Below, piece after piece: positions 15,062 to 33,230 of a DNA stretch of 64,000 nt; the first letter of the stretch is position 1, and each line of letters starts with the position of its first letter. Source of the stretch: Minisyncoccota bacterium (GTDB lineage: Bacteria; Patescibacteriota; Minisyncoccia; Phycocordibacterales; CAIJYI01); NCBI GenBank assembly GCA_023229825.1, contig JALNYN010000002.1, positions 17,789-81,788 of the forward strand. Reading direction: 5' to 3'. Made by a program: the position numbers and the translations under genes. The notes beneath the pieces were generated by a model. It was not told the DNA's origin. It made no database searches and saw only the letters and a program-made list of their open reading frames with translations.

Positions 15062-15098
15062 GAAAAAAATCGACCACAGGGTCGATTTTTTTGAATTT

Positions 15099-15782
15099 CT
15101 ATCTCTGTATCGCTTTACAATCATCTAAAGCTGATCCCGTGAACACCAATGCCGCCTGACAGGTAACAATTGAGTCATAACAAGACGATACCGCTTGGGT
15201 TTGTATGTGAACGAAACAATATTTTGTGACGGTCGGTGCCGCAAAATCTCTCGCCTCACAGTTACTGCCTCCATAGCTCGCAGCCGCTTGGCATTGATCA
15301 GGCGTGTCAAAACACATATACGCCGAAAGGTTTCTGTTGTCGATGGTGTGTTTGCAGTATTTTGTCGTGTTGGTGGGTTGTTGCTGTTGTATTGTTTGTG
15401 ACGGAGCTAACTTTACCAAATTCAACCCTGTTCTCATAAGATCCGGATTGATGGTAACGATGATGACGGTTGATATCAGAAGAATCAATAGTCCGAATAT
15501 TGCCTCCCCCATCTTCTTTTTTCCCTCGGCTTTTGCGGAAGGGACGGCCGCAGTGACGTACCCGAGCGCTCCAATGATGATCATGATCACCGCCGCGATG
15601 ATGGCAAGACCTACTCCGGCGACAAAAACACCTTTCATGTATTCCACAAGCGTGGGGGTAGCGGATGTTGTCGGTATTGGGGCAAGAAGGGTGTATCCCG
15701 GATTTTGCGCAAAAGCGAAAAGCGGAGAAAAGAAATAGGCGCCGGGTATAAAATAGAAAATTGTTTTTTTTGCGTAATTCAT
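15099..15782 (-). CDS. VirB2/TrbC-like pilin-family protein, paralog 1: shared N-terminal module plus Cys-rich C-terminal domain
   Basis: Signal peptide, then LLAPIPTTSATPTLVEYMKGVFVAGVGLAIIAAVIMIIIGALGYVTAAVPSAKAEGKKKMGEAIFGLLILLISTVIIVTINPDLMRTGLNLVKLAP. That is two hydrophobic helices separated by a short basic loop (VirB2/TrbC topology). C-terminal 90 aa has 10 Cys. Confidence 0.6.
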   Translation of the reverse strand: MNYAKKTIFYFIPGAYFFSPLFAFAQNPGYTLLAPIPTTSATPTLVEYMKGVFVAGVGLAIIAAVIMIIIGALGYVTAAVPSAKAEGKKKMGEAIFGLLILLISTVIIVTINPDLMRTGLNLVKLAPSQTIQQQQPTNTTKYCKHTIDNRNLSAYMCFDTPDQCQAAASYGGSNCEARDFAAPTVTKYCFVHIQTQAVSSCYDSIVTCQAALVFTGSALDDCKAIQR

Positions 15783-15814
15783 GATCGAGGATAAATATGG
15801 TAAGTATTTGTTTG

Positions 15815-16720
15815 TTATTTAACTAAAACATCCCAATGATCGCTTTCCATGGCATAAATTGCACCGCTCGGGGATTGATATTGCAGCGCTCCATCGCTTC
15901 TTCTTCCAATATTGGTATAGTTATCCATAATGTAATTTGAAACGGAACTTGTTGTCCTAAGGTCAACTTTATATCCGTTAGCATGACTGTAGGTGCCATC
16001 GGCATGACCGGGTTCGGAACCTGCCGTAACGACGATATCGGCCCCGGATTGCTGTTGAAGATTTAACACCTCGTGAAGAGTTGATTCGTTGACGCCCGCC
16101 AATATGGTTTGCGGCGGTTGTGCATTTACTGTGATATGGCCCGTATCGGTAAGCAGAGATCGGTTCGCTTGTTCATTGCCGGTTGATTGTTGTGTTCCCG
16201 TTTGTGTTTGCGGGGGCGGGTTTGTCGTGCAAGTGTATGACCGCTGCGGACCTTCACACTCCGCCAGAGTTGAGTAACAGGCATTATTAAGAACGCCGGT
16301 ACGGCAATACTGGGTCGCGGTTTGCTGCTGTTGCTGTGTTACCGATGTCGGAGCTAACTTTACCAAATTCAACCCTGTTCTCATAAGATCCGGATTGATG
16401 GTAACGATAATAACCGTCGATATCAGAAGAATCAATAGTCCGAATATTGCCTCCCCCATTTTCTTTTTACCTTCAGCTTTTGCGGAAGGGACGGCTGCTG
16501 TGACGTACCCGAGCGCTCCAACGATGATCATGATCACCGCCGCGATGATGGCAAGACCTACTCCGGCGACAAAAACACCTTTCAAATACTCTACGGCCGA
16601 TGGAGCCGCTGATGTTGTCGGTATTGGGGCAAGAAGTTTATATCCCCGTGCAAAAGCGAAAGTTGGGAAAAAAATACTTAAACAGGTAAAAAAGGTAAAG
16701 TAACTTTTTTTTCTTTTCAT
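15815..16720 (-). CDS. VirB2/TrbC-like pilin-family protein, paralog 2, with a different C-terminal domain
   Basis: Same N-terminal module (…LLAPIPTTSAAPSAVEYLKGVFVAGVGLAIIAAVIMIIVGALGYVTAAVPSAKAEGKKKMGEAIFGLLILLISTVIIVTINPDLMRTGLNLVKLAP). About 290 nt (16350-16640) is ~95% identical at the DNA level to 15404-15700. C-terminal domain ...GHADGTYSHANGYKVDLRTT...ESDHWDVLVK is unrelated to paralogs 1 and 3. Start set at ATG 16718-16720 (MKRKKSYF), 1 nt after the stop of the upstream gene; the track ORF extends to 16801. Confidence 0.6.
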   Translation of the reverse strand: MKRKKSYFTFFTCLSIFFPTFAFARGYKLLAPIPTTSAAPSAVEYLKGVFVAGVGLAIIAAVIMIIVGALGYVTAAVPSAKAEGKKKMGEAIFGLLILLISTVIIVTINPDLMRTGLNLVKLAPTSVTQQQQQTATQYCRTGVLNNACYSTLAECEGPQRSYTCTTNPPPQTQTGTQQSTGNEQANRSLLTDTGHITVNAQPPQTILAGVNESTLHEVLNLQQQSGADIVVTAGSEPGHADGTYSHANGYKVDLRTTSSVSNYIMDNYTNIGRRSDGALQYQSPSGAIYAMESDHWDVLVK

Positions 16721-16721
16721 A

Positions 16722-17339
16722 CTAATCATTGAGATTTTTTGGCAAAGGTATTCCGTTGGGGCAGAAACTGAGATGATAGTCTGTACCGGCAGCTTTTTCA
16801 CTTACGGTAAAAGGAACGGTAAGCGCGACGTAGAGTTTGCATGCATCCTCTTTTGTGATCTCCAGTTTATCCAGAAAAGCCTGCTCAGCTTCTTCTCTTG
16901 TGATATAAAGATCGCCGCCCTCCAAGCTGATGTAAAAACTCTGATACTTTGCGTAGAACATGAAACTGTAGTTTACTCCTTCTTTAACTACGGCGTCATT
17001 ATCTTTATCGATGATCCTTGTGTAAGGGCTGAGATAGAAATTTTTCATTGAGAGCGTTTCCCCTTCCATGGTGGTCACTTTTATATTTTCAGGCGATTCC
17101 GCTTTTTTGGGCGCTGTCGACGTGCTCGTTTCATCCGGTTTTGCGGCGGCTGGCTTAGGAGTGGATCCGTTATTTTTTTGACTTACCGGAAAAGTGGGGT
17201 AATTAGTGTCGGATGGCTGTACTTCCGGAGCGTTTTTTTGCATTTTCCAATAAATGAATCCGCCGATGATGAGGATAACCGCCAAAATGTTGAGGGTGAT
17301 AATGATCTTTTTATTCATAGAGATCGATATTAAAAACAC
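16722..17339 (-). CDS. Secreted protein (N-terminal TM/signal anchor), paralog of 13003..13491
   Basis: 205 aa; MNKKIIITLNILAVILIIGGFIYW...; C-terminal homology to the 13003 product (GTDYHLSFCPNGIPLPKNL). Translationally coupled to pilin paralog 2. Confidence 0.6.
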   Translation of the reverse strand: MFLISISMNKKIIITLNILAVILIIGGFIYWKMQKNAPEVQPSDTNYPTFPVSQKNNGSTPKPAAAKPDETSTSTAPKKAESPENIKVTTMEGETLSMKNFYLSPYTRIIDKDNDAVVKEGVNYSFMFYAKYQSFYISLEGGDLYITREEAEQAFLDKLEITKEDACKLYVALTVPFTVSEKAAGTDYHLSFCPNGIPLPKNLND

Positions 17340-17342
17340 TTA

Positions 17343-18287
17343 TTAACGCGTAAAACCGCACTTCGAGTTCGCTCCCCATTGACCCCAATGGTTGCCGCCA
17401 TTCGATATTTCTACCGCCTTGGCAATATTGATATCCGGGTCAGTCGCAGCTGAAACACACTTTTGATATTGAGATTGTTCTATTACTGTGCAATCGTAAT
17501 TCGGCGCGGAAAAAGGGTGTAAAGGGTCGGCTTTATGATACTTATAGAGACATATCAATCCTCCAAGATCGTGCATGGTAAGATTGACCTGAAAAAGACC
17601 GAATGAGAATGAATTTCCGTCTCGGCATCGGTCTACCCTGCTCGCCAGTGACGCGTTCCCTCCACTTTCCGCATTGCAGATGGATGATGCCTTTTCTGCG
17701 TTCGCTCCAAAATATTTTGTAAGCGCTTGAACACTGCAAGGCCCCGGAGTGGTGATAGGTTTGCATTGTCCGCTGCCTGCTCCACCGCCCCCGCCTCCTC
17801 CGCCTCCGCCACCACCAGAACCGCCGCCTCCTGTTCCGTTGCCATATGGGTTGTATACGATGGGCAGCGGTGGCGATGGTGGGAGTTTTGCGAGATCCAT
17901 TCCTGCGGTTAACAGATCAGGATTAAGGGTGAAGAGTAACAGATAGGAAAAAATTGCCACAAAAAGTCCGCCGATCGCTTCAAATATCTTTTTCTTTCCT
18001 TCAGATTTTGCTGATGGAACCGCCGCCATGACATACTGAATACCTCCTATAACTATCATTATGACAGCAAAAATGACTGACATGCCGACAAACAATACCA
18101 CCAGTCCTTTTATGTAGGTCGGGAAAGAAAGAGATCCCGCGTTTGAAATAGTCGGGATCTCTGCGAGTAATTCATACCCCCTTTGCGCGAATGTGCTTTT
18201 GGCGGATAATACAAAAGAATAAAGCAACACAAGGAGAGCCGGGAGGAAGATATAAACGATATTTTTTTTATTTTTCTGTGACATCAT
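17343..18287 (-). CDS. VirB2/TrbC-like pilin-family protein, paralog 3, fused via a poly-Gly linker to a lysozyme-like/transglycosylase-like C-terminal domain
   Basis: N-terminal module LLAEIPTISNAGSLSFPTYIKGLVVLFVGMSVIFAVIMIVIGGIQYVMAAVPSAKSEGKKKIFEAIGGLFVAIFSYLLLFTLNPDLL. Linker GGGGSGGGGGGGGGGGAGSG. C-terminal CNAESGGNASLASRVDRCRDGNSFSFGLFQVN resembles the ES...G(L/F)(M/F)Q catalytic signature of lytic transglycosylase/Rpf-like lysozyme folds; this is inference. Confidence 0.55.
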   Translation of the reverse strand: MMSQKNKKNIVYIFLPALLVLLYSFVLSAKSTFAQRGYELLAEIPTISNAGSLSFPTYIKGLVVLFVGMSVIFAVIMIVIGGIQYVMAAVPSAKSEGKKKIFEAIGGLFVAIFSYLLLFTLNPDLLTAGMDLAKLPPSPPLPIVYNPYGNGTGGGGSGGGGGGGGGGGGAGSGQCKPITTPGPCSVQALTKYFGANAEKASSICNAESGGNASLASRVDRCRDGNSFSFGLFQVNLTMHDLGGLICLYKYHKADPLHPFSAPNYDCTVIEQSQYQKCVSAATDPDINIAKAVEISNGGNHWGQWGANSKCGFTR

Positions 18288-18317
18288 ATTTTCGGCTTCA
18301 CCGGCTGATTTTAAGTT

Positions 18318-18437
18318 AAAATTTAAAATGAAAAACTAAAAACGACAAGGTAAAATTAAAAAGACCACAAAACACTATTTGGAAATAATTTTTCCTTTTT
18401 AATTGTCGTTTTTAGTTTTTCATTTTTCAATTTTAAT
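18318..18437. repeat. ~30-bp-arm inverted repeat built from A-rich heptamers (ttaaaatttaaaatgaaaaactaaaaacgacaa ... ttgtcgtttttagtttttcatttttcaattttaa)
   Basis: Near-perfect arms separated by ~52 nt. The 26-mer ttgtcgtttttagtttttcattttt recurs at 33301-33327. Related A-rich heptamer arrays at 10196-10245, 12960-12985, 23128-23160, 23920-23950, 24925-25055 and 25484-25515. Confidence 0.8.
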
Positions 18438-18489
18438 TGAATAAACATTAAACAAGATCTATTTGTGTAAGCAGGTATGATTCTCGTCC

Positions 18490-19782
18490 TTACGCCTCCG
18501 CCTTATGTACCTCAAATGCCCAAAGAGATGAGTCTTTTTTGTTGGTAAAATAAATGAAATCCTGAAGCGGTGATATCACAAGCGAGGTCATATCCATAAG
18601 TTCCACCGTGAAACTTGAAGGAACAAGAATAACTACCGACTTCCCCGTGTTTGCATCTACTTGCCAAAGGTTATCTGAAAAAGAAACAGTCCCCTGATAC
18701 CAGGCATCAGGATAGGCGGTTCCGGGAAGATTTTGCGGAGCGGCGCAGTAGATGGTAAGGCTGTCGCTTTTCCATGCGCATTTTTCCGGCAAGGTCTGGA
18801 GGATCAGATTAACGGTAGTATTATTTGAAATATTATGGATACCAAGCGTTAATCCGCCTTTTGTGCTTTCTGAATAAAGAATGCGTTGTCCATCCGTGCT
18901 TGGGAGCGTCGTGAGCCCTTTTTTGTCGCCGAGGATCTTTTTAAGGACCCCGCTTTTTATATCGAATGAGTAAAGAAAACCGGGAACGTTTTGCGATGCT
19001 TTGGTTTGAAGGAGTACGTTTTTTGAGTTAACGGCAACCGGGAGCCATTCGGAAAAAGGAGACTGAAAGACTTGAGATCCGCTATTCTTTTCAAAATTGA
19101 ATATCGATCCAAAAGAATTTCTGTTGCTGAATTCACCAGTTCGCGTCAGATAAAAAGCCGTTTTTTCATCTGCCGATACTTTTAGGTCAGCAATATCCGG
19201 AGGAAGGAACCGTCCATTCGGAACAGATGCGCTGGTGGTAGCGTTATCAGATGATAAAGCGCCGGCTCTCGGGATATCAAGAACGAATGTGGAGATCGTC
19301 TCCCCTTTGCTTTTGAGATAACGCATTACGACCGATCTTCCGCTATTGGCAAACTGCGCTTCATAGATCCTCGGCATTATGGAATGAGAGATCCTGTTCG
19401 TTTGCATATCTTCGAGCCTGGTTTCAAAAACATTACCGGTCTCTTTTTCGACATAATTTACATACTCCTTTCCTGATTTCTGGGTTGCATATGATCCGGC
19501 TACGGCATTTTTGGTGACCTGACGTAAGATCGGAAGATCTTTATTGCCGACATACGCGGGAATATCAGAATTGTTATTTATCACATTTCCCGAAGGAGAG
19601 GTCCCATTGGGGTTAACTTTGGTACTGTCTGAGTTTCCAAAAGGAAAAAATCCATTAGGTTCCTGACCAGTCTCTTTTGGGGTGTTATTTCCGCCCCTCG
19701 TTAAAATGAATGACGCAAGGAAAAAACCGATGGTGATTATTGCGAATATTCCTACGATTATATAAAGCTGTTTTTTTGACAT
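18490..19782 (-). CDS. Bitopic membrane protein (N-terminal TM, ~400-aa beta-rich extracytoplasmic domain); possible T4SS-like structural component
   Basis: 430 aa; MSKKQLYIIVGIFAIITIGFFLASFILT; embedded in the virB4/virB6/pilin cluster. No recognisable family motif. Confidence 0.4.
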   Translation of the reverse strand: MSKKQLYIIVGIFAIITIGFFLASFILTRGGNNTPKETGQEPNGFFPFGNSDSTKVNPNGTSPSGNVINNNSDIPAYVGNKDLPILRQVTKNAVAGSYATQKSGKEYVNYVEKETGNVFETRLEDMQTNRISHSIMPRIYEAQFANSGRSVVMRYLKSKGETISTFVLDIPRAGALSSDNATTSASVPNGRFLPPDIADLKVSADEKTAFYLTRTGEFSNRNSFGSIFNFEKNSGSQVFQSPFSEWLPVAVNSKNVLLQTKASQNVPGFLYSFDIKSGVLKKILGDKKGLTTLPSTDGQRILYSESTKGGLTLGIHNISNNTTVNLILQTLPEKCAWKSDSLTIYCAAPQNLPGTAYPDAWYQGTVSFSDNLWQVDANTGKSVVILVPSSFTVELMDMTSLVISPLQDFIYFTNKKDSSLWAFEVHKAEA

Positions 19783-19789
19783 ATCCTTT

Positions 19790-20839
19790 TTAGTTATCGT
19801 ATGACATCATAACGTTTTTTGATGCGGTCTGAAGATCATAGCCCAGGTTGTTTATCGCGAGATTCAGCTGAAATCTTCCGCTCCCCTGTTCCGGCTTCCT
19901 GAAAGTGAACTCGGTTTTGTTGTCCGGATCGGTCTCGAGTTTTTTACCGTCAATTTTCCATGAAAAAGAGGCGGTGTTGTTGTTTAATCCCGGAAGTGCA
20001 AAATAGAAAGGCGCGGCGCGAACCGTGAGCTCTTTATCGGTGAACCGAAAAGCTTCACCCAGACTATTTTCAAATCTCATACCTTCGAGCGGTTTGTTCT
20101 GATAAAACACGATCTTCGGTTCGCTGACATAGATCGGGACCTTTTTACTGATCGATAATCCGGTATCCAGTGTGGAAACGGTGACCTCTATTTGGTCTGT
20201 ATTGTAGGTATAGCCGGTTTTGTAAATAAAAATATTTTTTCCATATCCGGAATCATTCGGATTTCCAAAATAGCCGGCTTTCCATTTATAGACGAGATTG
20301 GAGGAATTGTAGTAGCCATCTTGACCGACAAATGATGGAAATGGTACGACGCGCACAGAACCTTGCGACGACGGCAGAGCTTTTCCTTTGTAAAACGGCG
20401 GAACGTACGTATCTGCTTCCCAGAGCACATCAAGATCGGTCGGCGTTATAGTGACCTCTTTGGTTATATTGCCGAATGACGGCGCGTCTGCTGATATTTT
20501 TATGACTGATTGGTTGCCGACATTACCTGTGGTAAAAGTAAAGCTTTTTTTACCCAACCCTGTCAGTTTCATTTGTCCGTCGACATACCAAGTAATGGTA
20601 GTTTTATCGAGATTTACCTGAAAGGACGAAGCATTTACGGTTGTGCTCTGTAATGCTCCCGGAAACTTCGGGGTGTAAGAAAGAGTTATGATATTGCTGC
20701 TTTTTCCCATTATGGAGTCCAGTTGTCCGTATGCGTATCCAAACACGCTAAAAAATACAAGAAACACAAGTGGAAAATATATTTTCTTCATACCATTATT
20801 ATATAGGAAAAAACATCCGCAAAAAAGCAGGTTATCCAC
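19790..20839 (-). CDS. Secreted hypothetical protein (beta-rich)
   Basis: 349 aa; probable true start MKKIYFPLVFLVFFSVFGYAYG near 20791 followed by a signal peptide. Confidence 0.45.
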   Translation of the reverse strand: MDNLLFCGCFFLYNNGMKKIYFPLVFLVFFSVFGYAYGQLDSIMGKSSNIITLSYTPKFPGALQSTTVNASSFQVNLDKTTITWYVDGQMKLTGLGKKSFTFTTGNVGNQSVIKISADAPSFGNITKEVTITPTDLDVLWEADTYVPPFYKGKALPSSQGSVRVVPFPSFVGQDGYYNSSNLVYKWKAGYFGNPNDSGYGKNIFIYKTGYTYNTDQIEVTVSTLDTGLSISKKVPIYVSEPKIVFYQNKPLEGMRFENSLGEAFRFTDKELTVRAAPFYFALPGLNNNTASFSWKIDGKKLETDPDNKTEFTFRKPEQGSGRFQLNLAINNLGYDLQTASKNVMMSYDN

Positions 20840-20856
20840 TAGGCGGACGAGTATCA

Positions 20857-20885
20857 GGGATTAGTATCAGTATCAGGGACGACGG
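20857..20885. repeat. Left inverted repeat flanking the four-helix-bundle gene 20913..21275 (partner at 21281-21306)
   Basis: gggattagtatcagtatcagggacg versus the reverse complement of cgtccctgatactgatactaattccc: 25/26 match. Confidence 0.8.
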
Positions 20886-20912
20886 ACGTCCCACACAATA
20901 CTTATTCCTTTT

Positions 20913-21275
20913 TTATTTATTCATCGCGGATCTTATCAGACCGGAAATAAGTCGAATAGCGATACGTATGGAATTGTTTATATCATTAAAGTTTTTTTCA
21001 TCCAGATACCCGAGATCTTTTGCTACAAGAAGCTGGCTTTCGACCTCAAGAAGCGATCCTTTTGCGATAGCATAAAACTGAGATTTATCTTTTCCTGAAT
21101 TTCTTCCAAAACCCTCAGCAATATTCGACACTATTGAAACAGAAGCTCTGCGAATTTGATTCGTCAGACCAAACTTTTCATCCGAAGGAAACATTTTTGT
21201 AGTTTTATAAACTAGAATCACTAGTTTTTGTGATTCTTTCCATGCTTCTAAATCTGTAAAATTATGAATAGTCAA
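20913..21275 (-). CDS. Four-helix-bundle protein (23S rRNA intervening-sequence protein family)
   Basis: 120 aa; RRASVSIVSNIAEGFGRNSGKDKSQFYAIAKGSLLEVESQLLVAKDLGYL is the family signature (SNIAEGFGR). Confidence 0.8.
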   Translation of the reverse strand: MTIHNFTDLEAWKESQKLVILVYKTTKMFPSDEKFGLTNQIRRASVSIVSNIAEGFGRNSGKDKSQFYAIAKGSLLEVESQLLVAKDLGYLDEKNFNDINNSIRIAIRLISGLIRSAMNK

Positions 21276-21280
21276 TTTAT

Positions 21281-21306
21281 CGTCCCTGATACTGATACTA
21301 ATTCCC
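21281..21306. repeat. Right inverted repeat flanking the four-helix-bundle gene
   Basis: See 20857-20885. Confidence 0.8.
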
Positions 21307-21318
21307 GATACTTATGCT

Positions 21319-23175
21319 TTATTGATTCGTCGACTGTTCGGCGTATTCGTTTCTTGATTTTTTGATCGCTAATACTTGCGATGGGTCGGAGGTGATGATC
21401 TGATCCTCTGTGTAAGACGAAATAACCTTAATGGCAACATGTTTTGACCCGGCAAAGAAGATACCCTCTCCTACTCCCGATTCAAGTAAAAGATATTTTT
21501 CCTCATCCGTAAGATTGAAGGTTTTTTGAACGATCTCAACGGAAGACGGGGATTGTTTCATAAGGAATTGCAGCGAGGAGTTCGTTATGATCGGCAAACC
21601 GTACGGACTTCGTAAAAAGTCTTCGACGTCCTGTGTGATCGTGGCGATCCCCAGAAAGTATTTTCTTCCTCTTTTTGCCAAACTAAAGAGAAAAGAAGCC
21701 GTATCTTCGGATTTCATCATCCACCATGCCTCGTCGATAACCATGAGCCGTTTGCGGAGCTCTTTGCGTATGGCACCCCAAATGTAGTGAGTAATGATAT
21801 ACATGGCCACCGGTTTCAGCTCATCTTCCATGTCTCGGACTGAAAAAACGATGAATTTCTTATTGATGTCGATATTCGTCGGCTTGTTGATGAAATTCGA
21901 CCATGTTCCCTTCGTGTATTTTGTGAGGCGCTGAACCAGTGATTCCGCACCATCCATTCCTGTGAGAACCAGCTCAAAGTCGCCCAGGATCGGCGGATCG
22001 ACCTCTGCAAAGTTGGATTCAGCGGTAATATCTTTCATTGCATAGGTTTCCGTAATGGCGCGATCGATGATCGCATCTTCTTCCGGAGTAAGGCCGCTGA
22101 ACATGATACGAAAGAGGCCCACTAGGTTGATGATATGAGACCGAAGAACATCGGACGCTGATTCATCTTCTCTTGGAACGGGAAGATCAAAAGGATTGAT
22201 GTGGTGCCCTGACGTAAGCGAAATATTGAAATATCTGCCGCCGGTAGCCTCCGCCATATATTCATATTCCCTTTCCGGATCGATAACAATGACTTCCGTA
22301 TCGAGCATGAGCGTTCGAAGTATTTCAAGCTTTGTTGTGTAGGATTTACCGGATCCGGACTTCGCAAAGATGATCGAGTTATAGTTTTCGAGAGAAAAAC
22401 GGTCGAATAGAACAAGACTGGAATTGTGTCGATTGACGCCATAGAGAATCCCCTTATCGGAGGTGAGGTCGAAAGAAACGAACGGAAACATGCTCGATAG
22501 AGGCGAAGAATTGAGCTTGGAATGGATCTGGAGGTCGTCTGTTCCGGTCGGTATAACACTATGAAAGCCGATCTCTTGCTGAAAGAGCGCCGGTTTTACA
22601 TAGACGAGCTTTGATTCCAAAAGAGATTTTATCTGAGATTCGAATTTATCCAATTCAGCGTCATCCGATCCATAAATGGTGACATACAGGCCGACATCGT
22701 AGAGTTTTTCCGTCGCCTGCTGCAGTTTGTCGCGCAATTCCTCAAGATCGCGAAAAGCAGTTTCAAGGATCGGATCGCGAACGAAACCTTTTTCTTCCCT
22801 CTCACTGATCTGGCTTTGTACTTCCGTCACCTTTTTCTGGAATTGTTTGAGTACGGTTCCGGTATCGATCGGATGCACGAAGATGGAAATATCGAAAACG
22901 CGGTCAAGATTGATGATCGGAGAGAACCAGCTGTCGGAAAGATAACGAGGATAAGAGATAACAAAGAATGTCCTTGCGATCTTTTCGCCGAGATTCAGCT
23001 GCTTCGGAGTGATCTTGAGCGCGGCCGGAGCGAGCACATCGCGCAGTTCGAGAACGCCGGATTCATATATTTCCTGCGGCAGGATCGGTACGATCTCTTG
23101 TTTATTCGATTTGTTTCCAAAAAATCCCATATAAAAAAGTAAAAAGTTAAAAGGTGAAAGTTTTTTCGTTGTCAT
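21319..23175 (-). CDS. virB4: VirB4/TrbE/CagE-family type IV secretion ATPase (short Gram-positive-like form)
   Basis: Walker A FAKSGSGKSYTT; Walker B LMVIDEAWWMM, where DEAW is the VirB4 signature; ~600 aa. The track ORF starts at a GTG (23199) inside the family-C repeat. First in-frame ATG (MTTKKLSPF) is at 23175 and a later Met (MGFFGNK) at 23130. Confidence 0.85.
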   Translation of the reverse strand: MTTKKLSPFNFLLFYMGFFGNKSNKQEIVPILPQEIYESGVLELRDVLAPAALKITPKQLNLGEKIARTFFVISYPRYLSDSWFSPIINLDRVFDISIFVHPIDTGTVLKQFQKKVTEVQSQISEREEKGFVRDPILETAFRDLEELRDKLQQATEKLYDVGLYVTIYGSDDAELDKFESQIKSLLESKLVYVKPALFQQEIGFHSVIPTGTDDLQIHSKLNSSPLSSMFPFVSFDLTSDKGILYGVNRHNSSLVLFDRFSLENYNSIIFAKSGSGKSYTTKLEILRTLMLDTEVIVIDPEREYEYMAEATGGRYFNISLTSGHHINPFDLPVPREDESASDVLRSHIINLVGLFRIMFSGLTPEEDAIIDRAITETYAMKDITAESNFAEVDPPILGDFELVLTGMDGAESLVQRLTKYTKGTWSNFINKPTNIDINKKFIVFSVRDMEDELKPVAMYIITHYIWGAIRKELRKRLMVIDEAWWMMKSEDTASFLFSLAKRGRKYFLGIATITQDVEDFLRSPYGLPIITNSSLQFLMKQSPSSVEIVQKTFNLTDEEKYLLLESGVGEGIFFAGSKHVAIKVISSYTEDQIITSDPSQVLAIKKSRNEYAEQSTNQ

Positions 23176-23248
23176 CCCGGGCAACGACCCGGGATCCACG
23201 TTGTTACTGTATTGGACGACGTGGATTCCGGATCAAGTCCGGAATGAC
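23167..23248. repeat. Family-C double-hairpin element, complete copy
   Basis: cgttgtcatcccgggcaacgacccgggatccacgttgt (stem atcccggg/cccgggat) + spacer + acgtggattccggatcaagtccggaatgacg (stem attccgg/ccggaat). Overlaps the annotated 5' end of virB4. Confidence 0.85.
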
Positions 23249-23266
23249 GGAATAATAAAGGACGAA

Positions 23267-23917
23267 TTAATGTACATTTTCGAGAGGGATCGGTTTATCG
23301 ACCTCGCCCGGATTAAATATTTTATAAAAAAGTTCGACGATCTCTTCCGTTCCGAGCTGTGCTACGCGTATTCCGAATCGCGATAATCCTTGTTCGATCA
23401 CCGAAACCCTCTGCTCTATTTGTGTCTTGCTTTCTTCGAAGTTCTCCAGCCATTCTTTTGTTTTTGCCGTTGCGGGAGTTCCTCCTCCGGAAGTGAAGCT
23501 CCATTTGCTTTTAACGCTGGAACTTATGTTCGATGCATACGGAACGACCACGAAGAAGCTTTTAGACATAATATTTGTGGAGTCCGTAAAATTCTTAATA
23601 AAGTCGATGTATTCGCGTGTCTGTATCCGCATAAGCTCGTTGATCTGGTCTCTTTCCTTTTCCTCCAAAAACGCGATATACGGGCGAATATCCAAACGGC
23701 GCGATTGAATATAGAATTGGATGGAAAATTCGAGCGAATTGAGAAAATTCTGGAATTGACCGATGATGGCCTCCTGTTCGTCTTGCGATTTAAGCGCTAT
23801 GTTCAAAGAAGAAGTCATAAGAACAGCGCGAAAAGAATTGTCTTTCATGATGACGATCCCGTCGCGTATCTCTTTGATCGGTATGAAGTCTTGAGCTGGT
23901 TTAGATTTTTGAGCCAT
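23267..23917 (-). CDS. Hypothetical cytoplasmic protein in the T4SS-like cluster
   Basis: 216 aa, no TM, no recognised motif. Confidence 0.4.
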   Translation of the reverse strand: MAQKSKPAQDFIPIKEIRDGIVIMKDNSFRAVLMTSSLNIALKSQDEQEAIIGQFQNFLNSLEFSIQFYIQSRRLDIRPYIAFLEEKERDQINELMRIQTREYIDFIKNFTDSTNIMSKSFFVVVPYASNISSSVKSKWSFTSGGGTPATAKTKEWLENFEESKTQIEQRVSVIEQGLSRFGIRVAQLGTEEIVELFYKIFNPGEVDKPIPLENVH

Positions 23918-23962
23918 GTTTCAATTTAAAAAGTAAAAATGAAAAAGTAGATCGTTAAATGG

Positions 23963-24340
23963 TTAAATGGTTAAATTGTTGTTTGTAAATTGGATCAGCG
24001 TGTTGATTTCCTTTGAAAGAGAGTTGAGACATTTGTATATTTTATCGTATTCCTCTTTTTTTATTAGTTTTCTGATTTTTGCTTTCTCGTTCCAATCAAG
24101 AGATTCTTTTACGGAACCGCGGCTATAATAGTAAAATTTTATCTTGTCTTTTTTTCCGTATCTTCCAAATCCTTCGGCGATATTAGCTGAAATAGAATCA
24201 ACCGCTCGTACAAACTGTTTTCCAACGGTATCTTTTTCAAAATAACCCCAAGAACAAACAATACCCCATATACAATTGCTTAAAATAAACGATTTTTTGT
24301 ATGCAGAAATGTCATTCAGTGCAAGATATTTTTTATCCAT
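23963..24340 (-). CDS. Four-helix-bundle protein (23S rRNA IVS protein family), second copy
   Basis: VDSISANIAEGFGRYGKKDKIKFYYYSRGSVKESLDWNEKA. The track start (24349) is a TTG; first ATG gives MDKKYLALN. Flanked by inverted ttaaatgg-unit repeats (23954-23981 and 24350-24379). Confidence 0.8.
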   Translation of the reverse strand: MDKKYLALNDISAYKKSFILSNCIWGIVCSWGYFEKDTVGKQFVRAVDSISANIAEGFGRYGKKDKIKFYYYSRGSVKESLDWNEKAKIRKLIKKEEYDKIYKCLNSLSKEINTLIQFTNNNLTI

Positions 24341-24382
24341 ATTTTTCAACCATTTAACAATTTAGCCATTTAACAATTTTTC

Positions 24383-24895
24383 CTACAAGTCCTTCAATAG
24401 CGGTGCGTGTCCTTTTTCTGATATTTGGGATCTTTTTCCGTATTGGTCTTTATCTTTGATGTCTAAACTCCACGCAAGATCTTTCAGATTGCTTTCCGAT
24501 AAAGGCGGAACATAGGCGCCGTTTACTCCCGAATCTTGCCCTTTCATGGATGAGGAGGAACTTTCCGGTTTTCTGGGTTCTTTTTTCCAGATATAAAGCC
24601 GGGGCGACGAAAAATATGTCAGAAATGCTTCAACCATAAACATGAACGGTTTGTTGTATGGCCGGTAAAAAGCAAGCGCCACCCCGAACGATATCGAGAG
24701 CACAATAAGAGGAAGAGCAAAATATATTTTTAAGTAAGTGTAGGCAAGGTATGAAACAGCCAGACTTCCCAAAATATAGAGAAACTGCTTCATTGTAATA
24801 AATCCGAAGACCTTGTCTTCCACTTCAAGAAATTGAGGTACGTGGTATTGCATAATATTTTCTATACTATAAATATACCACGAAAAACAATACAA
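24383..24895 (-). CDS. Small 2-TM membrane protein, possible VirB3/PrgI-like T4SS component
   Basis: 170 aa; two hydrophobic helices (FLYILGSLAVSYLAYTYLKIYFALPLIVLSISFGVALAFY). Placed between VirB6-like and VirB4 genes as VirB3 usually is. Inference only. Confidence 0.35.
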   Translation of the reverse strand: MYCFSWYIYSIENIMQYHVPQFLEVEDKVFGFITMKQFLYILGSLAVSYLAYTYLKIYFALPLIVLSISFGVALAFYRPYNKPFMFMVEAFLTYFSSPRLYIWKKEPRKPESSSSSMKGQDSGVNGAYVPPLSESNLKDLAWSLDIKDKDQYGKRSQISEKGHAPLLKDL

Positions 24896-25057
24896 CCAAA
24901 GTGAATGACGGGGCGGTCGTTGAAAATAGTTAAAAAGTAAAAATGAAAAAGAAAAAACTACAACTAAAAAGTAAAAATTAACACAAAACTCGAGCGAGTG
25001 GTCAATTTTTAATTTTTCCTTATCGTTTTTAATTTTTCGATTTTACTTTTTAGTTTT

Positions 25058-25480
25058 TTATATTGCCTCCTTATATGGATCGACAGGTTTATTGATCTCG
25101 GCGGGCGCTTGTTCCGGTTTTATTTCAAGCTTTTTTTCTTCCGCTGAGTTTGCTTCCGCGGTCATTTTATGGATCTCCATCAAAGAATGACGGACGTTTT
25201 TGAAGATCTTTTCGTTTATTATGCCGGCGATCTCTTTGGCTGTCGGCGCCGGAATATTAAGTGTTTTTTCTACAATGGAAATGAATTTTTGCGGAGGGGT
25301 GGCTCCCAGCATAAGCATCCCGACTTCCGCCGAAAGATCGCCGACCTGGTCGATGTGAAAATGGTATTTTTCCTGTATTCCCTTAAGAACATCCACGGTA
25401 TCCACCGAAGTCATCGCGTCTTTGACATCGTCGGGAAGCTCCGCGAACATTTTATCGAGTTGAGATTTTGTGTAGGGCAT
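25058..25480 (-). CDS. Hypothetical soluble protein
   Basis: 140 aa, acidic, no motif recognised. Confidence 0.4.
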   Translation of the reverse strand: MPYTKSQLDKMFAELPDDVKDAMTSVDTVDVLKGIQEKYHFHIDQVGDLSAEVGMLMLGATPPQKFISIVEKTLNIPAPTAKEIAGIINEKIFKNVRHSLMEIHKMTAEANSAEEKKLEIKPEQAPAEINKPVDPYKEAI

Positions 25481-25561
25481 GTTTCAAATTAAAAACTAAA
25501 AATGAAAAAGGAAAAATTGTTTTAAAATTTACTTTTTTCACACCATTCTCTTAACTATTCT

Positions 25562-25622
25562 GTCGCCGGACTGGGGTTGCCACCGCAGCGTGCGGGGTCC
25601 CGCTTGCGAGCGGGATACCCCT
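25562..25622. repeat. Composite GC-rich palindromic element (family A-like half + family B-like half) just past the stop of the VirB6-like gene
   Basis: gtcgccggactggggttgccaccgcagcg (compare REP copies at 32301 and 32637) followed by gtgcggggtcccgcttgcgagcgggatacccc (compare 36496-36540). Confidence 0.7.
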
Positions 25623-25639
25623 ATCCGAAAACGTTTGTG

Positions 25640-28141
25640 TTATTTCTTTCTTTTTCCTTTACCGTCTTCCTTCCAGGTCCATTGAGGTTTTTCTTCCGTG
25701 GTTTTACGGTCTGCCGTTGCATTTTTTGGAGCAAGGTCCAAATATTCTTTTGCTTTCTGGTCAACACCGTTCTTAACGGCTTCTTTTATTTCCGCCCAGT
25801 GCTCGTCGGTAAGATTGAGAGTGTTCGATCTGTTTATCTTTTCCAATTGCGTCTTGGTAAGGTGTTTCGCTACAAGCGGATTAGCGAGATCCTCTTCTTC
25901 TAAGGTCGCTATTCGGTTGTCACCCATTTTTTTAACCAGTTCTGTAACCTCCTCTCTTGTTTTCTCTTGATCCGCTTCGGTAAGAGCGCTATATTTCGCA
26001 AGCTTATCTTTCAGGTCGTTTCTGGCCTCTCGGAATCCTTCTTCTTTTTCGAAGTTTCGTCTTTCTATCTTCGCGGCATCCTGCTGGAGCGGTTTGAGTT
26101 TTGCGAAGACTGCGGTGTTTAGTTCTTTGATCGCTCCGTAATCTGTCGACTTGATCTGTTCCTTAACTTCTTCGAGCTGCTTTTCTATTGCTGTGCGCTC
26201 CTCTGCCCCCAAATTCTTATCGCTCAATTTCTTTTCCTTTTCAGCCACATCGGCTTGCATTGCTTTTACCTCTGACGTTCTCAAGTTTGCTTCGATCTGT
26301 GCGCGTTCCTTCTCTGTCATCCCTTTCAGGACTGCACGCATCTCATCGTCTGTGCGGCCGCGGACCTTATTTCCGTTCGCATCGATCGATTCATTACGCA
26401 AACCGGCAATAAGCGCAGCTTGTTTCTTTGGATCGCCTTCCAGACTCTTGTAACGTTCGACAACCGCCGGGGGCGAGAAGTTTATTTCACCGAGATCAGC
26501 GTTGAGTTGGCGCATGAACTGCTTGTCGTCTCCATCTTTGGCGCTCTCTATCAATTTCAGGCGCTCATTAACCGGCAGCGAAGCCATGATCTTTCTGGTG
26601 GAAACACCGAAGTCAAGCGGATGGGTAGGGCCTTTGCCCATAATATTGGGGCTGTAAACGCTTTTGAGATACGCAATTTTCTGTTGATCGGTTTTAAGGC
26701 TCTGGAATGTTTTGAGTTTTTCATCATCGCCCTCTTTTTGTTTTTGTGCATAGGTTTTAGCGGTACCAACGCCCAAGTTAAGTCCGGCGTTGCCGGCAGC
26801 TTGTTTAAATCCGCCGGTATTTCTGATATCGAAGCTTGAATTTTGCGCCTTATCAAGGGAAGAAAGTGCAAAACGACCAGCTATCGAAGTTTTCATATTA
26901 TCGATCCTGCCCTCTCTTTCCCATTTATCCTGCAGATATTGCGCCGATCTTCCAACACCACCCCTCATTGCCATTGCGCCGAAACCAAGAGCAGCCCCCG
27001 TCCCCATAGAAAGATATTTTGATGCGGCTGCTCCCGCCTGACCCGCCATTCCGGTCGCCATTTTCAGTCCATACATGAGGAATGCTCCGACAATGGCGAT
27101 TTGAAGCATTGCAGGAATAAGTGCGGTAAGCGCCCCTTGTTCGGCATTCGGCGTCCCTGTATTTAAACGAAAAGTCGTACCGGTTGCCTGAACGAGGCGC
27201 GAAGCGATGTAAACAAAAAACAAAAAAGGCGCGGGAAAAAAGACTTGCTTGGTCAGTTCGCTGAGCCATGCGCCGAATTTACTGCTGAACTGCGGAGTGG
27301 CGTAGGAAAAAAATGCCAGCGGTGAAATGATCATCAGCGCCCATATCATGGCAACGCGCCCGATCATGAGGAATGATGCCGCCAGCATGACAAAAATGAA
27401 AATGATCATCAAAACTCCGCACAGAAAATACACAAAAGCGATCCACGCCCAATGATCTTGCGATAAATTGAGATGGACAAGAGCGTCTTGTACCGGAATG
27501 AGAACCGCATGTAAAAAACCGCCGGTAATATTATGCTGCTCAATTCCATTAAAATCGATGTATAAGCCGCTTTCATCAGGAAAGGCATTATAGAATTCGA
27601 TCGCGACCATGTTTCCGACATCGACGATGAACCGGGTAATATACATGCTGAAATTCATGAAAAGCGCAACGACAATGACCGACATAAGGAGTTTTTTGGT
27701 TTGGCCGGACAGTTTCCCTAAGATCGTCATGATGGCGATATAAAGAAGGATGAAAATAAAGAACGTATTGGCGACATCACGACAGATCACCCAGCCGATA
27801 TTGATGAATTGCCGATCGGGAGCAAGATTATCTTGCTGATAACTGCTGCTGTTCAATCCGTACGCAAAGAGGGCGTTACTGGCGAGACTCGCAAATTCTG
27901 CGAGCCACGAAGGTACTTTAATAAAGAGGAAATAGGCACTGTAAACAATAATACAAGGACCCAGGTTGGTAACACAATTAATAAAACCAATAGGGTCTGG
28001 GGCAGCAGTTGAGTTAATACCTTGGGCATGAGCCACGGACTGATCAGGATCCCACGGGGCCGACATCGTAAAAAGAACCGGTGTAATGACAAGAACCAGA
28101 AATATGCGCGCGATTATTCTTTTTACCTTTGATGATAACAT
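25640..28141 (-). CDS. TrbL/VirB6-like polytopic membrane protein with ~430-aa charged coiled-coil C-terminal extension
   Basis: N-terminal ~400 aa with at least 6 TM helices (…AASFLMIGRVAMIWALMIISPLAFFSYATPQFSSKFGAWLSELTKQVFFPAPFLFFVYIASRLV…). C-terminal half is K/E-rich. Position next to virB4 and pilins. Confidence 0.55.
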   Translation of the reverse strand: MLSSKVKRIIARIFLVLVITPVLFTMSAPWDPDQSVAHAQGINSTAAPDPIGFINCVTNLGPCIIVYSAYFLFIKVPSWLAEFASLASNALFAYGLNSSSYQQDNLAPDRQFINIGWVICRDVANTFFIFILLYIAIMTILGKLSGQTKKLLMSVIVVALFMNFSMYITRFIVDVGNMVAIEFYNAFPDESGLYIDFNGIEQHNITGGFLHAVLIPVQDALVHLNLSQDHWAWIAFVYFLCGVLMIIFIFVMLAASFLMIGRVAMIWALMIISPLAFFSYATPQFSSKFGAWLSELTKQVFFPAPFLFFVYIASRLVQATGTTFRLNTGTPNAEQGALTALIPAMLQIAIVGAFLMYGLKMATGMAGQAGAAASKYLSMGTGAALGFGAMAMRGGVGRSAQYLQDKWEREGRIDNMKTSIAGRFALSSLDKAQNSSFDIRNTGGFKQAAGNAGLNLGVGTAKTYAQKQKEGDDEKLKTFQSLKTDQQKIAYLKSVYSPNIMGKGPTHPLDFGVSTRKIMASLPVNERLKLIESAKDGDDKQFMRQLNADLGEINFSPPAVVERYKSLEGDPKKQAALIAGLRNESIDANGNKVRGRTDDEMRAVLKGMTEKERAQIEANLRTSEVKAMQADVAEKEKKLSDKNLGAEERTAIEKQLEEVKEQIKSTDYGAIKELNTAVFAKLKPLQQDAAKIERRNFEKEEGFREARNDLKDKLAKYSALTEADQEKTREEVTELVKKMGDNRIATLEEEDLANPLVAKHLTKTQLEKINRSNTLNLTDEHWAEIKEAVKNGVDQKAKEYLDLAPKNATADRKTTEEKPQWTWKEDGKGKRKK

Positions 28142-28142
28142 T

Positions 28143-29114
28143 TTACAAATTCCTCAAGTCCATGTTTCCGAGCCATCCTACGATCGTTTGATAAAGAGTC
28201 GTTACTGCAGGAGCCATTGCTTCATCCAATTCGTCGGCCGAGTCAAGCTGAGTCAGCGATTCCTCGAGATAATTATCCATTGAGGCGGAAACGCTGCTTC
28301 CCGGGGTAATGGAAGTACATCCGATATAATGTCCGTAGACGCAGTCGGTTTTCACATCGCGATATCCTTGTCCTGCCTGAACTTCCGCCTGGGTGTGGGT
28401 GAGCGCTTCGTTTACTTGCCTGTTCAACTCGGCTGCCGTTCTTTCTTGTACGGAAAAAATGTCATTTTTTGGCGACTGCAGAGCGTTCCAGCAATCCCAG
28501 CCGTTTCCGGTCGGGCAGGCATTCCAATCATTCATAAAGGCTTCATATCCGGCGTCTCCCCCCGGAAAATCAACTCCCTCGGAAATATTTTGAGAAAAAG
28601 GCGTTGTTTTCTGTTCCAGAACATTTGCTCTCGCTTGACCTTTGACGAAATCAAGCATTCCGGTGGTATTGGCGTAATCATTCGCAAAGAAATAATCCGT
28701 CACTTCGCCGTTTATGGTGGTGTAGTAGCCCTGCGGATTATCAATAAAAGAGGAATTTCCAAAAAATCCTGTCTGTGCCATCGTTTTCATTCCCTCGAAT
28801 TGCACACTGATCAAAGCTTTTGCCGCGAACCACGCGATGGAATCCCAGCTGCATCCGGTTCCGAGCACTCCGCCCGCGCCTCCGAACGATCCGCCGCCGG
28901 TGAGTCCGCCGAGAATATTACCGGTGTTGCTGATAAGATTCGCAATGCACGAATCGAGATCCTTCTCTTCCACGAGAGGCGTTCTCATTTCCGCGATGGG
29001 GACGAGAACCTGAAGCGGGGTCTTTCCCTGCGCAAGCGCTCCATTCGCTGATGTTAGAAAAAGCGAACCGGCCAATGAAAAGATCAAACCAATGGCGATG
29101 TTTTTATTAAACAT
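28143..29114 (-). CDS. Secreted Gly-rich hypothetical protein immediately upstream of the VirB6-like gene (VirB5/TrbJ-like position)
   Basis: 323 aa; signal peptide MFNKNIAIGLIFSLAGSLFLTSANGALA; the functional analogy is positional only. Confidence 0.35.
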   Translation of the reverse strand: MFNKNIAIGLIFSLAGSLFLTSANGALAQGKTPLQVLVPIAEMRTPLVEEKDLDSCIANLISNTGNILGGLTGGGSFGGAGGVLGTGCSWDSIAWFAAKALISVQFEGMKTMAQTGFFGNSSFIDNPQGYYTTINGEVTDYFFANDYANTTGMLDFVKGQARANVLEQKTTPFSQNISEGVDFPGGDAGYEAFMNDWNACPTGNGWDCWNALQSPKNDIFSVQERTAAELNRQVNEALTHTQAEVQAGQGYRDVKTDCVYGHYIGCTSITPGSSVSASMDNYLEESLTQLDSADELDEAMAPAVTTLYQTIVGWLGNMDLRNL

Positions 29115-29152
29115 ACATTTTTAATTTATTTATATTTTTAGTTATAAAAAGA

Positions 29153-30154
29153 CTATTGTGCCGCCGGGAACGCGTTATAAAGGAGAGAAGCATTTTCTGT
29201 TGCGGTAAAGCTGATGCCGGAGTTGTCAAAATGGGTGGTTACGGAATCGAGAGTTATTTTCATTTTTGTCATGGTGCTTTTGTATTGCTGCATGCCGATG
29301 AGTCCGCGGGCCGGATCGGAAACCATGTATCCGATATTTTCGATCGCAATAACCGTGTCGGACAATTGATTGAGCAGGTTAAGATGGATGGGTGCCAGAT
29401 ACTCAGGAACTTTCAATTTTGAAACGGCGGAAATTTGATCTTTTCTTGCGCTTATCAATTTTGGCAATGTTTCAAAACTGGCGGAATCCCTTGTTTTTAG
29501 CGAAACCAATACCATGTACAATATTTTTTGCTGTTCATCGTTTTGATTGCCGAATTTTTTAAAAGTTACCCCGAGATCATTTCCGTATTGTTTCAATGAG
29601 GCTGACGTTTCCGTAACTGTGTTGATGTCTCTCAATTTAAACACAGCCGGAAGCTCCCCCGCTTTCTTATTGAAATCTTCCATTATGTTTTTAGCGACGG
29701 TCTTTGGAAAATCCGGATCATCCTGTGTGTCGCGGCCCGCAACGGTGAGCATTTCTCTCATCATCTTTTCCGTTAGGGTAAGATCTTCCAAAGAAGAGAT
29801 CGTCGGCGTCGTGGAGGAGTTTTTGATACTCGTATAGTTCATGTAATCATTCGGGCCTTTGACGAGAGGATCTCTTCCGAGCGATATCTCGACGCCATCG
29901 GGCGTACCGTCTGCGTCAGTGTCGGCCTTTTTTGAGTTCGTGCCCAGTTTTGATTCTTCCCAATCAAGCAAGCTATCGCCGTCCGAGTCGGTATTTGCGT
30001 TCGAAATGGCGAATTTTTCTATCTTTTCCAGCGCCAAACGATTCTTCTCCGCTCGGACATTTTTTCGCCATGCCGTGAACCCATAACCAACACCGGTGAT
30101 GACCGCGAGCGAGACAATAACGATAAAGAATCTTTTACTGGGAAGGTATTGCAT
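29153..30154 (-). CDS. Bitopic membrane protein with Asp-rich (Ca-binding-like) repeats
   Basis: 333 aa; TM FFIVIVSLAVITGVGYGF; TDSDGDSLLDWEESKLGTNSKKADTDADGTPDGVE resembles thrombospondin type-3/Ca-binding repeats. Confidence 0.4.
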   Translation of the reverse strand: MQYLPSKRFFIVIVSLAVITGVGYGFTAWRKNVRAEKNRLALEKIEKFAISNANTDSDGDSLLDWEESKLGTNSKKADTDADGTPDGVEISLGRDPLVKGPNDYMNYTSIKNSSTTPTISSLEDLTLTEKMMREMLTVAGRDTQDDPDFPKTVAKNIMEDFNKKAGELPAVFKLRDINTVTETSASLKQYGNDLGVTFKKFGNQNDEQQKILYMVLVSLKTRDSASFETLPKLISARKDQISAVSKLKVPEYLAPIHLNLLNQLSDTVIAIENIGYMVSDPARGLIGMQQYKSTMTKMKITLDSVTTHFDNSGISFTATENASLLYNAFPAAQ

Positions 30155-31244: not shown

Positions 31245-31258
31245 AAAGATAAAAATAT

Positions 31259-32675: not shown

Positions 32676-32691
32676 AATCTTTCGCATGTCA

Positions 32692-33195: not shown

Positions 33196-33230
33196 TAATG
33201 ATTACTATAAAGAAATTTTTAATCAAATAC

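Follow-up and report, generated by a model that had tools for sequence, protein, structure and literature searches.

A type IV secretion system locus, very probably inherited vertically, and its PF05635 passenger cassettes in a Minisyncoccota bacterium

The analysed stretch of 64,000 nucleotides from a Minisyncoccota bacterium (contig JALNYN010000002.1, positions 17,789 to 81,788 of the forward strand, hereafter the window) was found to carry 15 consecutive genes on its minus strand, read from 30154 down to 15099; coordinates given are positions within this 64-kb window. The cluster is very probably a vertically inherited chromosomal type IV secretion system (T4SS) locus of the sort typical of Patescibacteria, which also harbours genes of the PF05635 family in cassettes that are separate passengers. 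It encodes a minimal membrane translocon of monoderm ancestry (mating-pair formation class MPF-FATA), consisting of PrgI/VirB3, a TrsD-like protein with a VirB4 ATPase, and a channel protein of extended VirB6-like type. To these are added VirB2-like pilins, three in number and one of them with a lysozyme-like domain, as well as several envelope and surface proteins specific to the lineage. This kind of system was already described in 2025 (Quinonero-Coronel et al. 2025, PMC12102498), and the locus is one more member. The gene order claimed in a first-pass annotation, made from the DNA letters alone, was recovered by inspection of open reading frames (ORFs) and profile matches, and the bitopic, secreted and soluble assignments agreed with a simple hydrophobicity scan.

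ksgA borders the cluster at one end, and yidC, rnpA, dnaA and dnaN border it at the opposite end; ultrasmall Patescibacteria carry this cluster beside their origin of replication. The composition of the window showed no compositional island at the cluster. Two of its proteins displayed 100% identity to hypothetical proteins of a Candidatus Paceibacterota metagenome-assembled genome (MAG). When relatives of VirB4 were sought using one genome per species, more than 580 were obtained, and the best 80 loci were used for the comparisons. VirB4 identity among these 80 was 74-92%, all of them being MAGs of Parcubacteria, Paceibacteria or other Patescibacteria; the closest relative (locus L001) has a VirB4 that is 92% identical. 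The order that recurred in the best 80 loci was ksgA, calcium-repeat protein, VirB6-like protein, the small soluble protein g140, PrgI, TrsD, VirB4, immunoglobulin (Ig)-repeat protein, pilins/propeller and yidC. The comparison with Parcubacteria loci that had been suggested for this DNA thus showed that the ksgA to yidC arrangement is shared across the retrieved Parcubacteria and Paceibacteria genomes. Since the same order is kept between core genes across the relatives, it points to a vertically inherited chromosomal apparatus and not to a mobile element.

The VirB4-family ATPase (21319-23127) was assigned to the CD1110/MPF-FATA type by NF045971 (365.5 bits, cutoff 325) and also matched P-loop_TraG with 91 bits. 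Its Walker A (AKSGSGKS) and Walker B (VIDEAW) motifs are intact, and the earlier VirB4 call, which had pointed to a DEAW Walker B, survives validation by hidden Markov models. The ATPase was thus correctly recognized; the view of VirB4 as a single gene had to be corrected. The ORF at 23267-23917, minus strand, encodes a TrsD-like protein of 216 aa that corresponds to the N-terminal domain of VirB4, as evidenced by matches to NF041427 TrsD/TraD (9e-8), Mbov_0397 (7e-15) and the TraC-like family PF26593. As this ORF covers positions 1-126 of the CD1110 VirB4 model, the start of the model that also describes the ATPase, VirB4 is encoded in two pieces, here with a spacer of 139 nt between them. 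Of 79 related loci, 77 encode TrsD and VirB4 in separate ORFs, usually with 1-20 nt between them.

The small membrane protein proposed earlier as a VirB3 candidate (24383-24895, minus strand) was identified as PrgI/VirB3 by PF12666 (32.5 bits, cutoff 27). Its true start is probably the ATG at 24853, because homologs align from residue 13-15. The largest of these components is a divergent, extended VirB6/TrbL-like polytopic protein of 833 aa (25640-28141, minus strand), assigned by homolog matches and the hydrophobicity scan, with at least six transmembrane (TM) helices and a tail in which the last 363 aa contain 38% K/R/D/E. Such a topology fits the earlier VirB6-like call and resembles the extended VirB6 proteins of, for example, Rickettsiales, which have at least five TM helices and a large hydrophilic C-proximal domain (PMC12857230). 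Unlike in those proteins, the tail is a low-complexity charged region and the TrbL/VirB6 similarity is transitive only: PF04610 (TrbL) was matched by 7 of 33 homologs, the best at 5.7e-8. A soluble protein of 140 aa (g140, 25058-25480, minus strand) is kept upstream of PrgI in most related loci (synteny, 40 loci); no PDB relative was found for it.

The pilin triplet of the first-pass annotation was confirmed, as all three products match PF18895 (T4SS_pilin). The first one alone passes the Pfam cutoff and the other two are clear paralogs. According to profiles and topology, the first (17343-18287, minus strand) combines a signal peptide and two TM helices with a VirB2-like pilin domain (27.6 bits, cutoff 26.6), a poly-Gly linker and a lysozyme-like SLT_3 domain (30.3 bits, cutoff 27), the latter with a predicted VirB1-type function. 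The second (15815-16729, minus strand; a gene call of 304 aa; 17.9 bits, below cutoff) combines a Cys-rich module with an uncharacterised C-terminal domain of ~130 aa. The third (15099-15782, minus strand; 20.4 bits, below cutoff) carries two Cys-rich modules and showed a weak match to the Mbov_0395 pilin-like conjugal transfer protein. The genes of the second and third pilin have a 300-nt direct repeat in common, 88% identical, and differ in their C-terminal modules. A by-eye guess of a LAS/M15 metallopeptidase for the C-terminal domain of the second pilin was discarded, having found no support in Pfam, PDB or PHROGs. Next to the first pilin gene, a bitopic protein of 205 aa is encoded (16722-17339, minus strand), which is present only in the two closest relatives and for which database searches gave no informative match.

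The remaining products are secreted or anchored. The first gene of the conserved cluster (29153-30154, minus strand) encodes a bitopic protein of 333 aa with a TM helix at residues 4-22 and DxDxDG repeats of TSP3-like, calcium-binding type. Weak matches to the TSP3_bac, MtsD and CglD repeats were obtained, and its syntenic homologs are 23-51% identical. It is followed by a secreted Gly-rich protein of 323 aa (28143-29114, minus strand), mostly alpha-helical and with a signal peptide, whose stop codon lies 1 nt from the start of the VirB6-like gene; its 16 homologs are all of Paceibacteria type. For this candidate at the VirB5 position, the AlphaFold2 model was helical, with a predicted local distance difference test score (pLDDT) of 51, too low for fold comparison; the AlphaFold2 models were built from alignments of database homologs. 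Beyond VirB4, a secreted protein of 333 aa (19790-20791, minus strand) contains tandem Ig/PKD-like domains (Hoc Ig repeats, 8e-4), and BiPBP_C was found in 11 of its 36 homologs.

The neighbouring gene (18490-19782, minus strand) encodes a protein of 430 aa modelled with a pLDDT of 84.8 as an extracellular beta-propeller of seven blades that a disordered linker of ~50 aa joins to a TM anchor. The propeller resembles generic propellers (E about 1e-10), with a weak TolB match and PG_binding_1 in some homologs. Both proteins had been proposed as VirB8-10 analogs, which did not hold: one is a generic propeller on a TM anchor, the other consists of Ig/PKD-like repeats, and no VirB8/9/10 fold or sequence relationship was found for either. 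PADLOC and PHROGs scans of the cluster proteins without a family gave no useful match. The conserved extracellular set formed by the beta-propeller, the Ig-repeat, the calcium-repeat and the helical secreted protein offers candidates for the host-contact part of the apparatus. The pilin-hydrolase fusions and the encoding of TrsD and VirB4 as separate ORFs are also useful features.

The 2025 survey (PMC12102498) described a monophyletic Patescibacteria VirB4 clade related to MPF-FATA conjugation systems, with TrsD as the most abundant associated component, accompanied by PrgI, VirB6 and VirB2-like pilin arrays. It also reported VirB1-type hydrolases linked to virB4, especially in Paceibacteria, a near-universal absence of relaxases, and a location near dnaA, dnaN, rnpA and ksgA in Paceibacteria. 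The present locus is in good agreement with that description: TrsD is separate and adjacent, PrgI/VirB3, a VirB6-like protein and a VirB2-like pilin array are present, a hydrolase lies near virB4, no relaxase or type IV coupling protein (T4CP) is nearby, and the position relative to dnaA, dnaN, rnpA and ksgA is the same. It differs in having only three pilins, one lysozyme-fused and two with Cys-rich or uncharacterised C-terminal domains. The beta-propeller, Ig-repeat, calcium-repeat and helical secreted proteins were not found named in the text of the survey, and the two cassettes of intervening-sequence (IVS) type and the hairpin repeats, both dealt with below, have no mention in it. The locus adds nothing categorically new to the picture of the Patescibacteria T4SS and is a clean Paceibacteria example of it.

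With the MPF-FATA systems of monoderm bacteria (Trs of pGO1/pSK41, Prg of pCF10, CD1110 of C. difficile CTn2, and Mbov_0397 of the Mycoplasma integrative and conjugative element, ICE) the locus shares a CD1110-family VirB4 and a PrgI-type VirB3. As in pGO1, the N-domain of VirB4 is split off in the TrsD manner, and the weak Mbov_0395 pilin match recalls the Mycoplasma ICE. Unlike those systems, the locus lies in the core chromosome and not in a mobile element, it yielded no relaxase, T4CP, surface adhesin or VirB8-like PrgL, and it has pilins, which have been called exceptional for monoderm systems (PMC12102498, PMC12857230).

Among the ORFs of at least 100 aa scanned in the window, no T4CP, relaxase, VirB11, integrase or reverse transcriptase was detected, and three large ORFs without family matches showed no P-loop. 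The absence of VirD4, relaxase and VirB11 noted in the first-pass annotation therefore holds for these ORFs, and a non-conjugative nature of the locus is supported. A core neighbourhood lacking conjugation functions agrees with the view that the Patescibacteria T4SS was co-opted away from conjugation (PMC12102498). By analogy with published work on other classes, the apparatus would serve host-cell contact and macromolecule exchange and not conjugation: VirB4 would power the building of a pilus or conduit that traverses the wall of the cell itself, aided by the pilin-fused hydrolase. In Southlakia epibionticum, epibiotic growth requires the T4SS with its pilin array, independently of ComEC (PMC12857230, on the locus of Wang et al. 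2023). A preprint (10.64898/2026.06.21.733656) reports tubular structures, possibly T4SS pili, at a parasite-host interface. The Patescibacteria T4SS is one of the few molecular handles on the lifestyle of ultrasmall host-dependent bacteria, and it is essential in the one species that is genetically tractable.

The earlier suggestion of a DNA-uptake or contact apparatus, not conjugative, stands in its non-conjugative part, and its DNA-uptake part is disfavoured by the genetics of Southlakia, a member of another class. A competence machine like Helicobacter ComB or archaeal Ced, importing environmental or host DNA, would account for the relaxase and T4CP missing from the window, and the T4SS of the class ABY1 adjoins comF, recG and radA (PMC12102498). 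VirB4 also gave a weak partial match to the DNA-import ATPase CedB (NF041017, 9e-9, 34 bits against a cutoff of 700); however, this match is limited to the generic P-loop region and lies far under the cutoff. No com genes were found in the window. In Southlakia, competence needs ComEC, and deletion of comEC abolishes competence with viability unaffected (PMC12857230). Competence being dispensable while the T4SS is essential there, DNA uptake is argued against as the core function, and we consider this explanation improbable for the present locus, which is better read as a contact and exchange apparatus.

The PF05635 genes are not parts of the T4SS; they are self-contained passengers. Cassette 1 (20850-21312, minus strand, 463 nt) contains an ORF of 120 aa (20913-21275) between inverted repeats of 33 nt that are 94% complementary (20850-20882/21280-21312). 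Cassette 2 (23951-24377, minus strand, 427 nt) contains an ORF of 128 aa (23963-24349), and its inverted repeats of 31 nt, 87% complementary (23951-23981/24347-24377; stem of 26-31 nt), are made of TTAAATGG units. Both ORFs belong to PF05635 (84 and 129 bits), with PDB 2GSC at E=3e-32. The RNA fold of cassette 1 has a minimum free energy (MFE) of -138.7 kcal/mol (z=-5.9), with the terminal stem closing the element. In both cassettes the terminal stem is present in the MFE and centroid folds. Both are oriented as the operon and lie in spacers between protein-coding genes.

This architecture matches that of 23S rRNA intervening sequences. In Coxiella, the IVS measures 428-444 nt and has a 28-bp terminal stem that is cleaved by RNase III (PMC4990558). 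Like the elements of Coxiella burnetii and Leptospira, which carry an S23p/PF05635 ORF, the present cassettes (427 and 463 nt) have a closing stem of ~28-33 bp and an ORF of the same family. Unlike those elements, which lie in helix 45 of 23S rRNA, they are placed between protein-coding genes of an mRNA operon; no rRNA genes were found in the window. By the same route, RNase III would cut the cassette stem in the polycistronic RNA, making the insertion harmless to the flanking genes. A likeness to Avd of diversity-generating retroelements was also observed, as both belong to the same four-helix-bundle superfamily (bAvd 1.6e-4; PHROG Avd 1.5e-7). Unlike in such retroelements, no reverse transcriptase domain was found in the scanned ORFs of the window; no search was aimed at template/variable repeat pairs.

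The first-pass annotation had recognized the family and the flanking inverted repeats correctly. Its description of these genes as interleaved components did not stand, since they are sporadic, in a minority of orthologous loci and at varying spacers. In L001, PrgI and TrsD are 17 nt apart with no cassette between them, and a terminator-like hairpin follows virB4 at the place of cassette 1; L002 is also without a cassette between PrgI and TrsD. Within 81 VirB4-centred sequences, 20 genes of the family were found, that is, in about a fifth of the orthologous loci. They were distributed over the TrsD/VirB4 spacer (7), the PrgI/TrsD spacer (5), the region upstream of PrgI (5), the position after VirB4 (1) and elsewhere (2), and the 18 that occupy T4SS spacers were all oriented as the operon.

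In order to evaluate the flanks, 98 family genes were compared with 238 size-matched control ORFs. An inverted-repeat score of at least 24 was obtained for 81% of the family genes and for 3.4% of the controls (Mann-Whitney p=2e-34), so such flanks characterize the family as a whole. The sequence of the repeats varies from cassette to cassette but co-varies with the protein subfamily, CAAC-rich arms accompanying MKQFRF... proteins and A-rich arms another subfamily. This suggests that stem and ORF travel together.

A second sample of 80 metagenome loci was centred on IVS genes and collected by similarity to the cassette proteins; a 5-member subset was used for the alignment, the 20-member set being too diverse. 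The upstream neighbour shared the strand of the family gene in 93% of these loci and the downstream neighbour in 84%, with median gaps of ~35 nt, and the neighbours belonged to very diverse families, for example PFOR, thymidylate synthase, SecDF, LexA and type IV pilins. About 5 of the 80 loci adjoined T4SS genes; in four these were PrgI/TrsD/VirB4, and in the remaining one the neighbour was a g140 homolog. Given such diverse neighbours, a specific tie of the IVS genes to the T4SS was rejected. The cassettes are taken as selfish or neutral elements for which the surroundings of virB3/trsD/virB4 are a recurrent, non-exclusive landing site, and a functional link to the T4SS is unlikely.

One form of such a link would be that the PF05635 proteins are accessories or regulators of the T4SS, acting for instance by RNA-binding control of virB3/trsD/virB4 expression. 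Conserved residues such as the SNIAEG motif do show selection on the proteins. Likewise, 18 of the 20 family genes fall in just four spacers, those between g140 and the gene that follows virB4, which make up about a quarter of those sampled; their uniform orientation and the T4SS neighbours met again in the IVS-centred loci could be read in the same way. Nevertheless, the genes are missing from some four fifths of the orthologous loci and from the closest relative, their position varies among the four spacers, and the family also occurs in unrelated operons and in rRNA genes of candidate phyla radiation (CPR) bacteria. Moreover, in other genomes the same spacers hold small cassette genes of different kinds (DUF559, GxxExxY). 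We regard an accessory role as very improbable, and the cassettes as passengers.

Small genes with inverted-repeat flanks were also observed at L014:8053-8415, L015:8715-9122, L133:785-1141 and L099:11164-11535. Judged by eye from their motifs, they are of DUF559-type endonuclease and GxxExxY/PD-(D/E)xK-like kinds, and those of L014 and L015 occupy T4SS spacers in which IVS cassettes are also found. Tentatively, and with more doubt than confidence, PF05635, DUF559 and GxxExxY genes might be taken together as an undescribed class of small, promoterless, stem-closed cassettes that reside in operon spacers of Patescibacteria and other bacteria, and not only in rRNA genes; they would be tolerated via RNase III excision and would prefer the virB3/trsD/virB4 spacers. 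If so, the co-variation of stem and subfamily would reflect joint movement of stem and ORF, with no transposase needed in cis. If the cassettes were excised as RNA from mRNA operons, a 30-year-old curiosity of rRNA would become a general class of selfish element, and the cassettes could be used as natural markers of operon processing. Cassette biology is the only part of the locus with some potential for novelty, and it is incidental to the T4SS.

Several observations weigh against the reading of the locus as a vertically inherited, non-conjugative T4SS with independent passengers. The 833-aa protein itself gave no match to any Pfam or NCBIfam model, and the earlier VirB6-like call holds only transitively. 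No cluster protein matched a profile of a VirB8-like bitopic protein of NTF2 fold. VirD4 homologs lie far from virB4 in many genomes (PMC12102498), and the scope here was 64 kb. Finally, sense and antisense duplex energies of the cassette flanks showed no bias (6 vs 13), in a calculation where RNAduplex over-extends the pairings; lacking a sense-strand bias, a role at the RNA level is not told apart from one at the DNA level.

A conjugative element of the ordinary sort, either an ICE or an integrated plasmid, with relaxase, T4CP and oriT outside the window could be argued from the 64-kb scope and from the homology of VirB4, TrsD and PrgI to conjugation proteins of Firmicutes and Mycoplasma ICEs, but it is hardly credible for a locus that lies between the core genes ksgA, yidC, rnpA, dnaA and dnaN, whose synteny recurs in related genomes with VirB4 74-92% identical, where neither an integrase nor a compositional island was found, and in a group for which the 2025 survey counted just 109 relaxase homologs, spread over 103 genomes, with just 15 of the homologs located near virB4 (PMC12102498).

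The spacers of the cluster contain further repeats. An inverted-repeat search revealed a long A/U-rich hairpin with 59-nt arms in the g140-PrgI spacer (24924-25059), whose U-rich arm holds a 22-nt leader motif, and a second one with 53-nt arms in the spacer before the pilin genes (18310-18441). Alignment showed that the TrsD-VirB4 spacer holds a copy (23171-23248) of a dispersed palindromic repeat of ~80 nt. This repeat gave six matches at three loci, compared with 0.07 expected, the other copies being at ~8.35 kb and ~54.55 kb. The U-rich motif, CTTTTTCATTTTTACTTTTTAA, occurs on the minus strand at 23926-23947, 24930-24951 and 25489-25510 with 0-1 mismatch, directly upstream of TrsD, PrgI and g140, respectively, and in sense orientation (three copies, where chance would give 0.01). 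Ahead of g140 and TrsD, wTTGAAAC-ATG comes next and a Shine-Dalgarno sequence is lacking. The motif is complementary to A-rich arms in neighbouring spacers.

Neither the A/U-rich hairpins nor the ~80-nt repeat nor the 22-nt motif was present in the spacers of the closest relative. Long low-complexity hairpins are common in intergenic regions across the window, with arms of 27-58 nt built of short tandem units and a sequence that differs per site; examples are found at 8719-8805, 11746-11865, 12114-12208, 36403-36495, 50127-50206, 50672-50791 and 56187-56288. They are so widespread that they characterize the genome and not specifically the T4SS.

As for transcription signals, a terminator search placed a bidirectional terminator-like hairpin (15063-15092) where the last pilin gene and yidC converge. 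Upstream of the Ig-repeat gene (20792-20850), and at the corresponding place of the closest relative (L001:11880-11930), a TATAAT box was observed together with a conserved TAGTGGATAAC motif that is DnaA-box-like by eye, which suggests that the distal half of the cluster has its own promoter. A scan for sigma-70 promoters remained at chance level (28 found, 28.1 expected); operon boundaries are therefore drawn only from the TATAAT box, through the comparison with L001, and from the one terminator.

Beside the cluster, two genes on the plus strand (30303-31735) diverge from it and encode products of 313 and 158 aa, each with a signal or anchor sequence at its N-terminus. The 313-aa product showed weak peptidoglycan-binding and endolysin-like matches. 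Both genes are syntenic in the closest relative, the 313-aa gene also in several others, and they may belong to the conserved neighbourhood. The adjoining ksgA (31732-32607, minus strand) contains a GC-rich palindrome of 64 nt (31935-31998), 97% complementary and in frame, which adds 25 residues with respect to KsgA of the closest relative and resembles the Rickettsia palindromic elements inserted in genes. At 32638-33267, a gene for a REP-associated tyrosine transposase was identified (NF047646, 84 bits, cutoff 80), flanked by 41-nt inverted repeats of a GC-rich hairpin similar in style to the ksgA palindrome.

Other features of the window were also recorded. A tRNA-Pro(UGG) gene (63073-63144) lies within three nested inverted repeats (62967-63279). 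Around it, the sequence can be read as an outer tRNA-Pro-like gene split at the anticodon loop, with the 5' half at ~63022-63058 and the 3' half at ~63193-63230, and its insert of ~135 nt comprises the complete inner tRNA-Pro and a small hairpin. The RNA fold of the region 62967-63279 is extreme (-171 kcal/mol, z=-18.7). Near the start of the window (366-8105, minus strand), a 2579-aa protein of polymorphic-toxin type is encoded, with SpvB, FG-GAP and RHS-repeat regions and an uncharacterised C-terminal part of ~275 aa; the 173-aa gene downstream of it could be an immunity gene. Finally, the gene at 33335-36373 (minus strand) encodes a UvrD/PcrA-type helicase that carries an intein, as evidenced by Intein_splicing and Hint domains at residues ~254-621.

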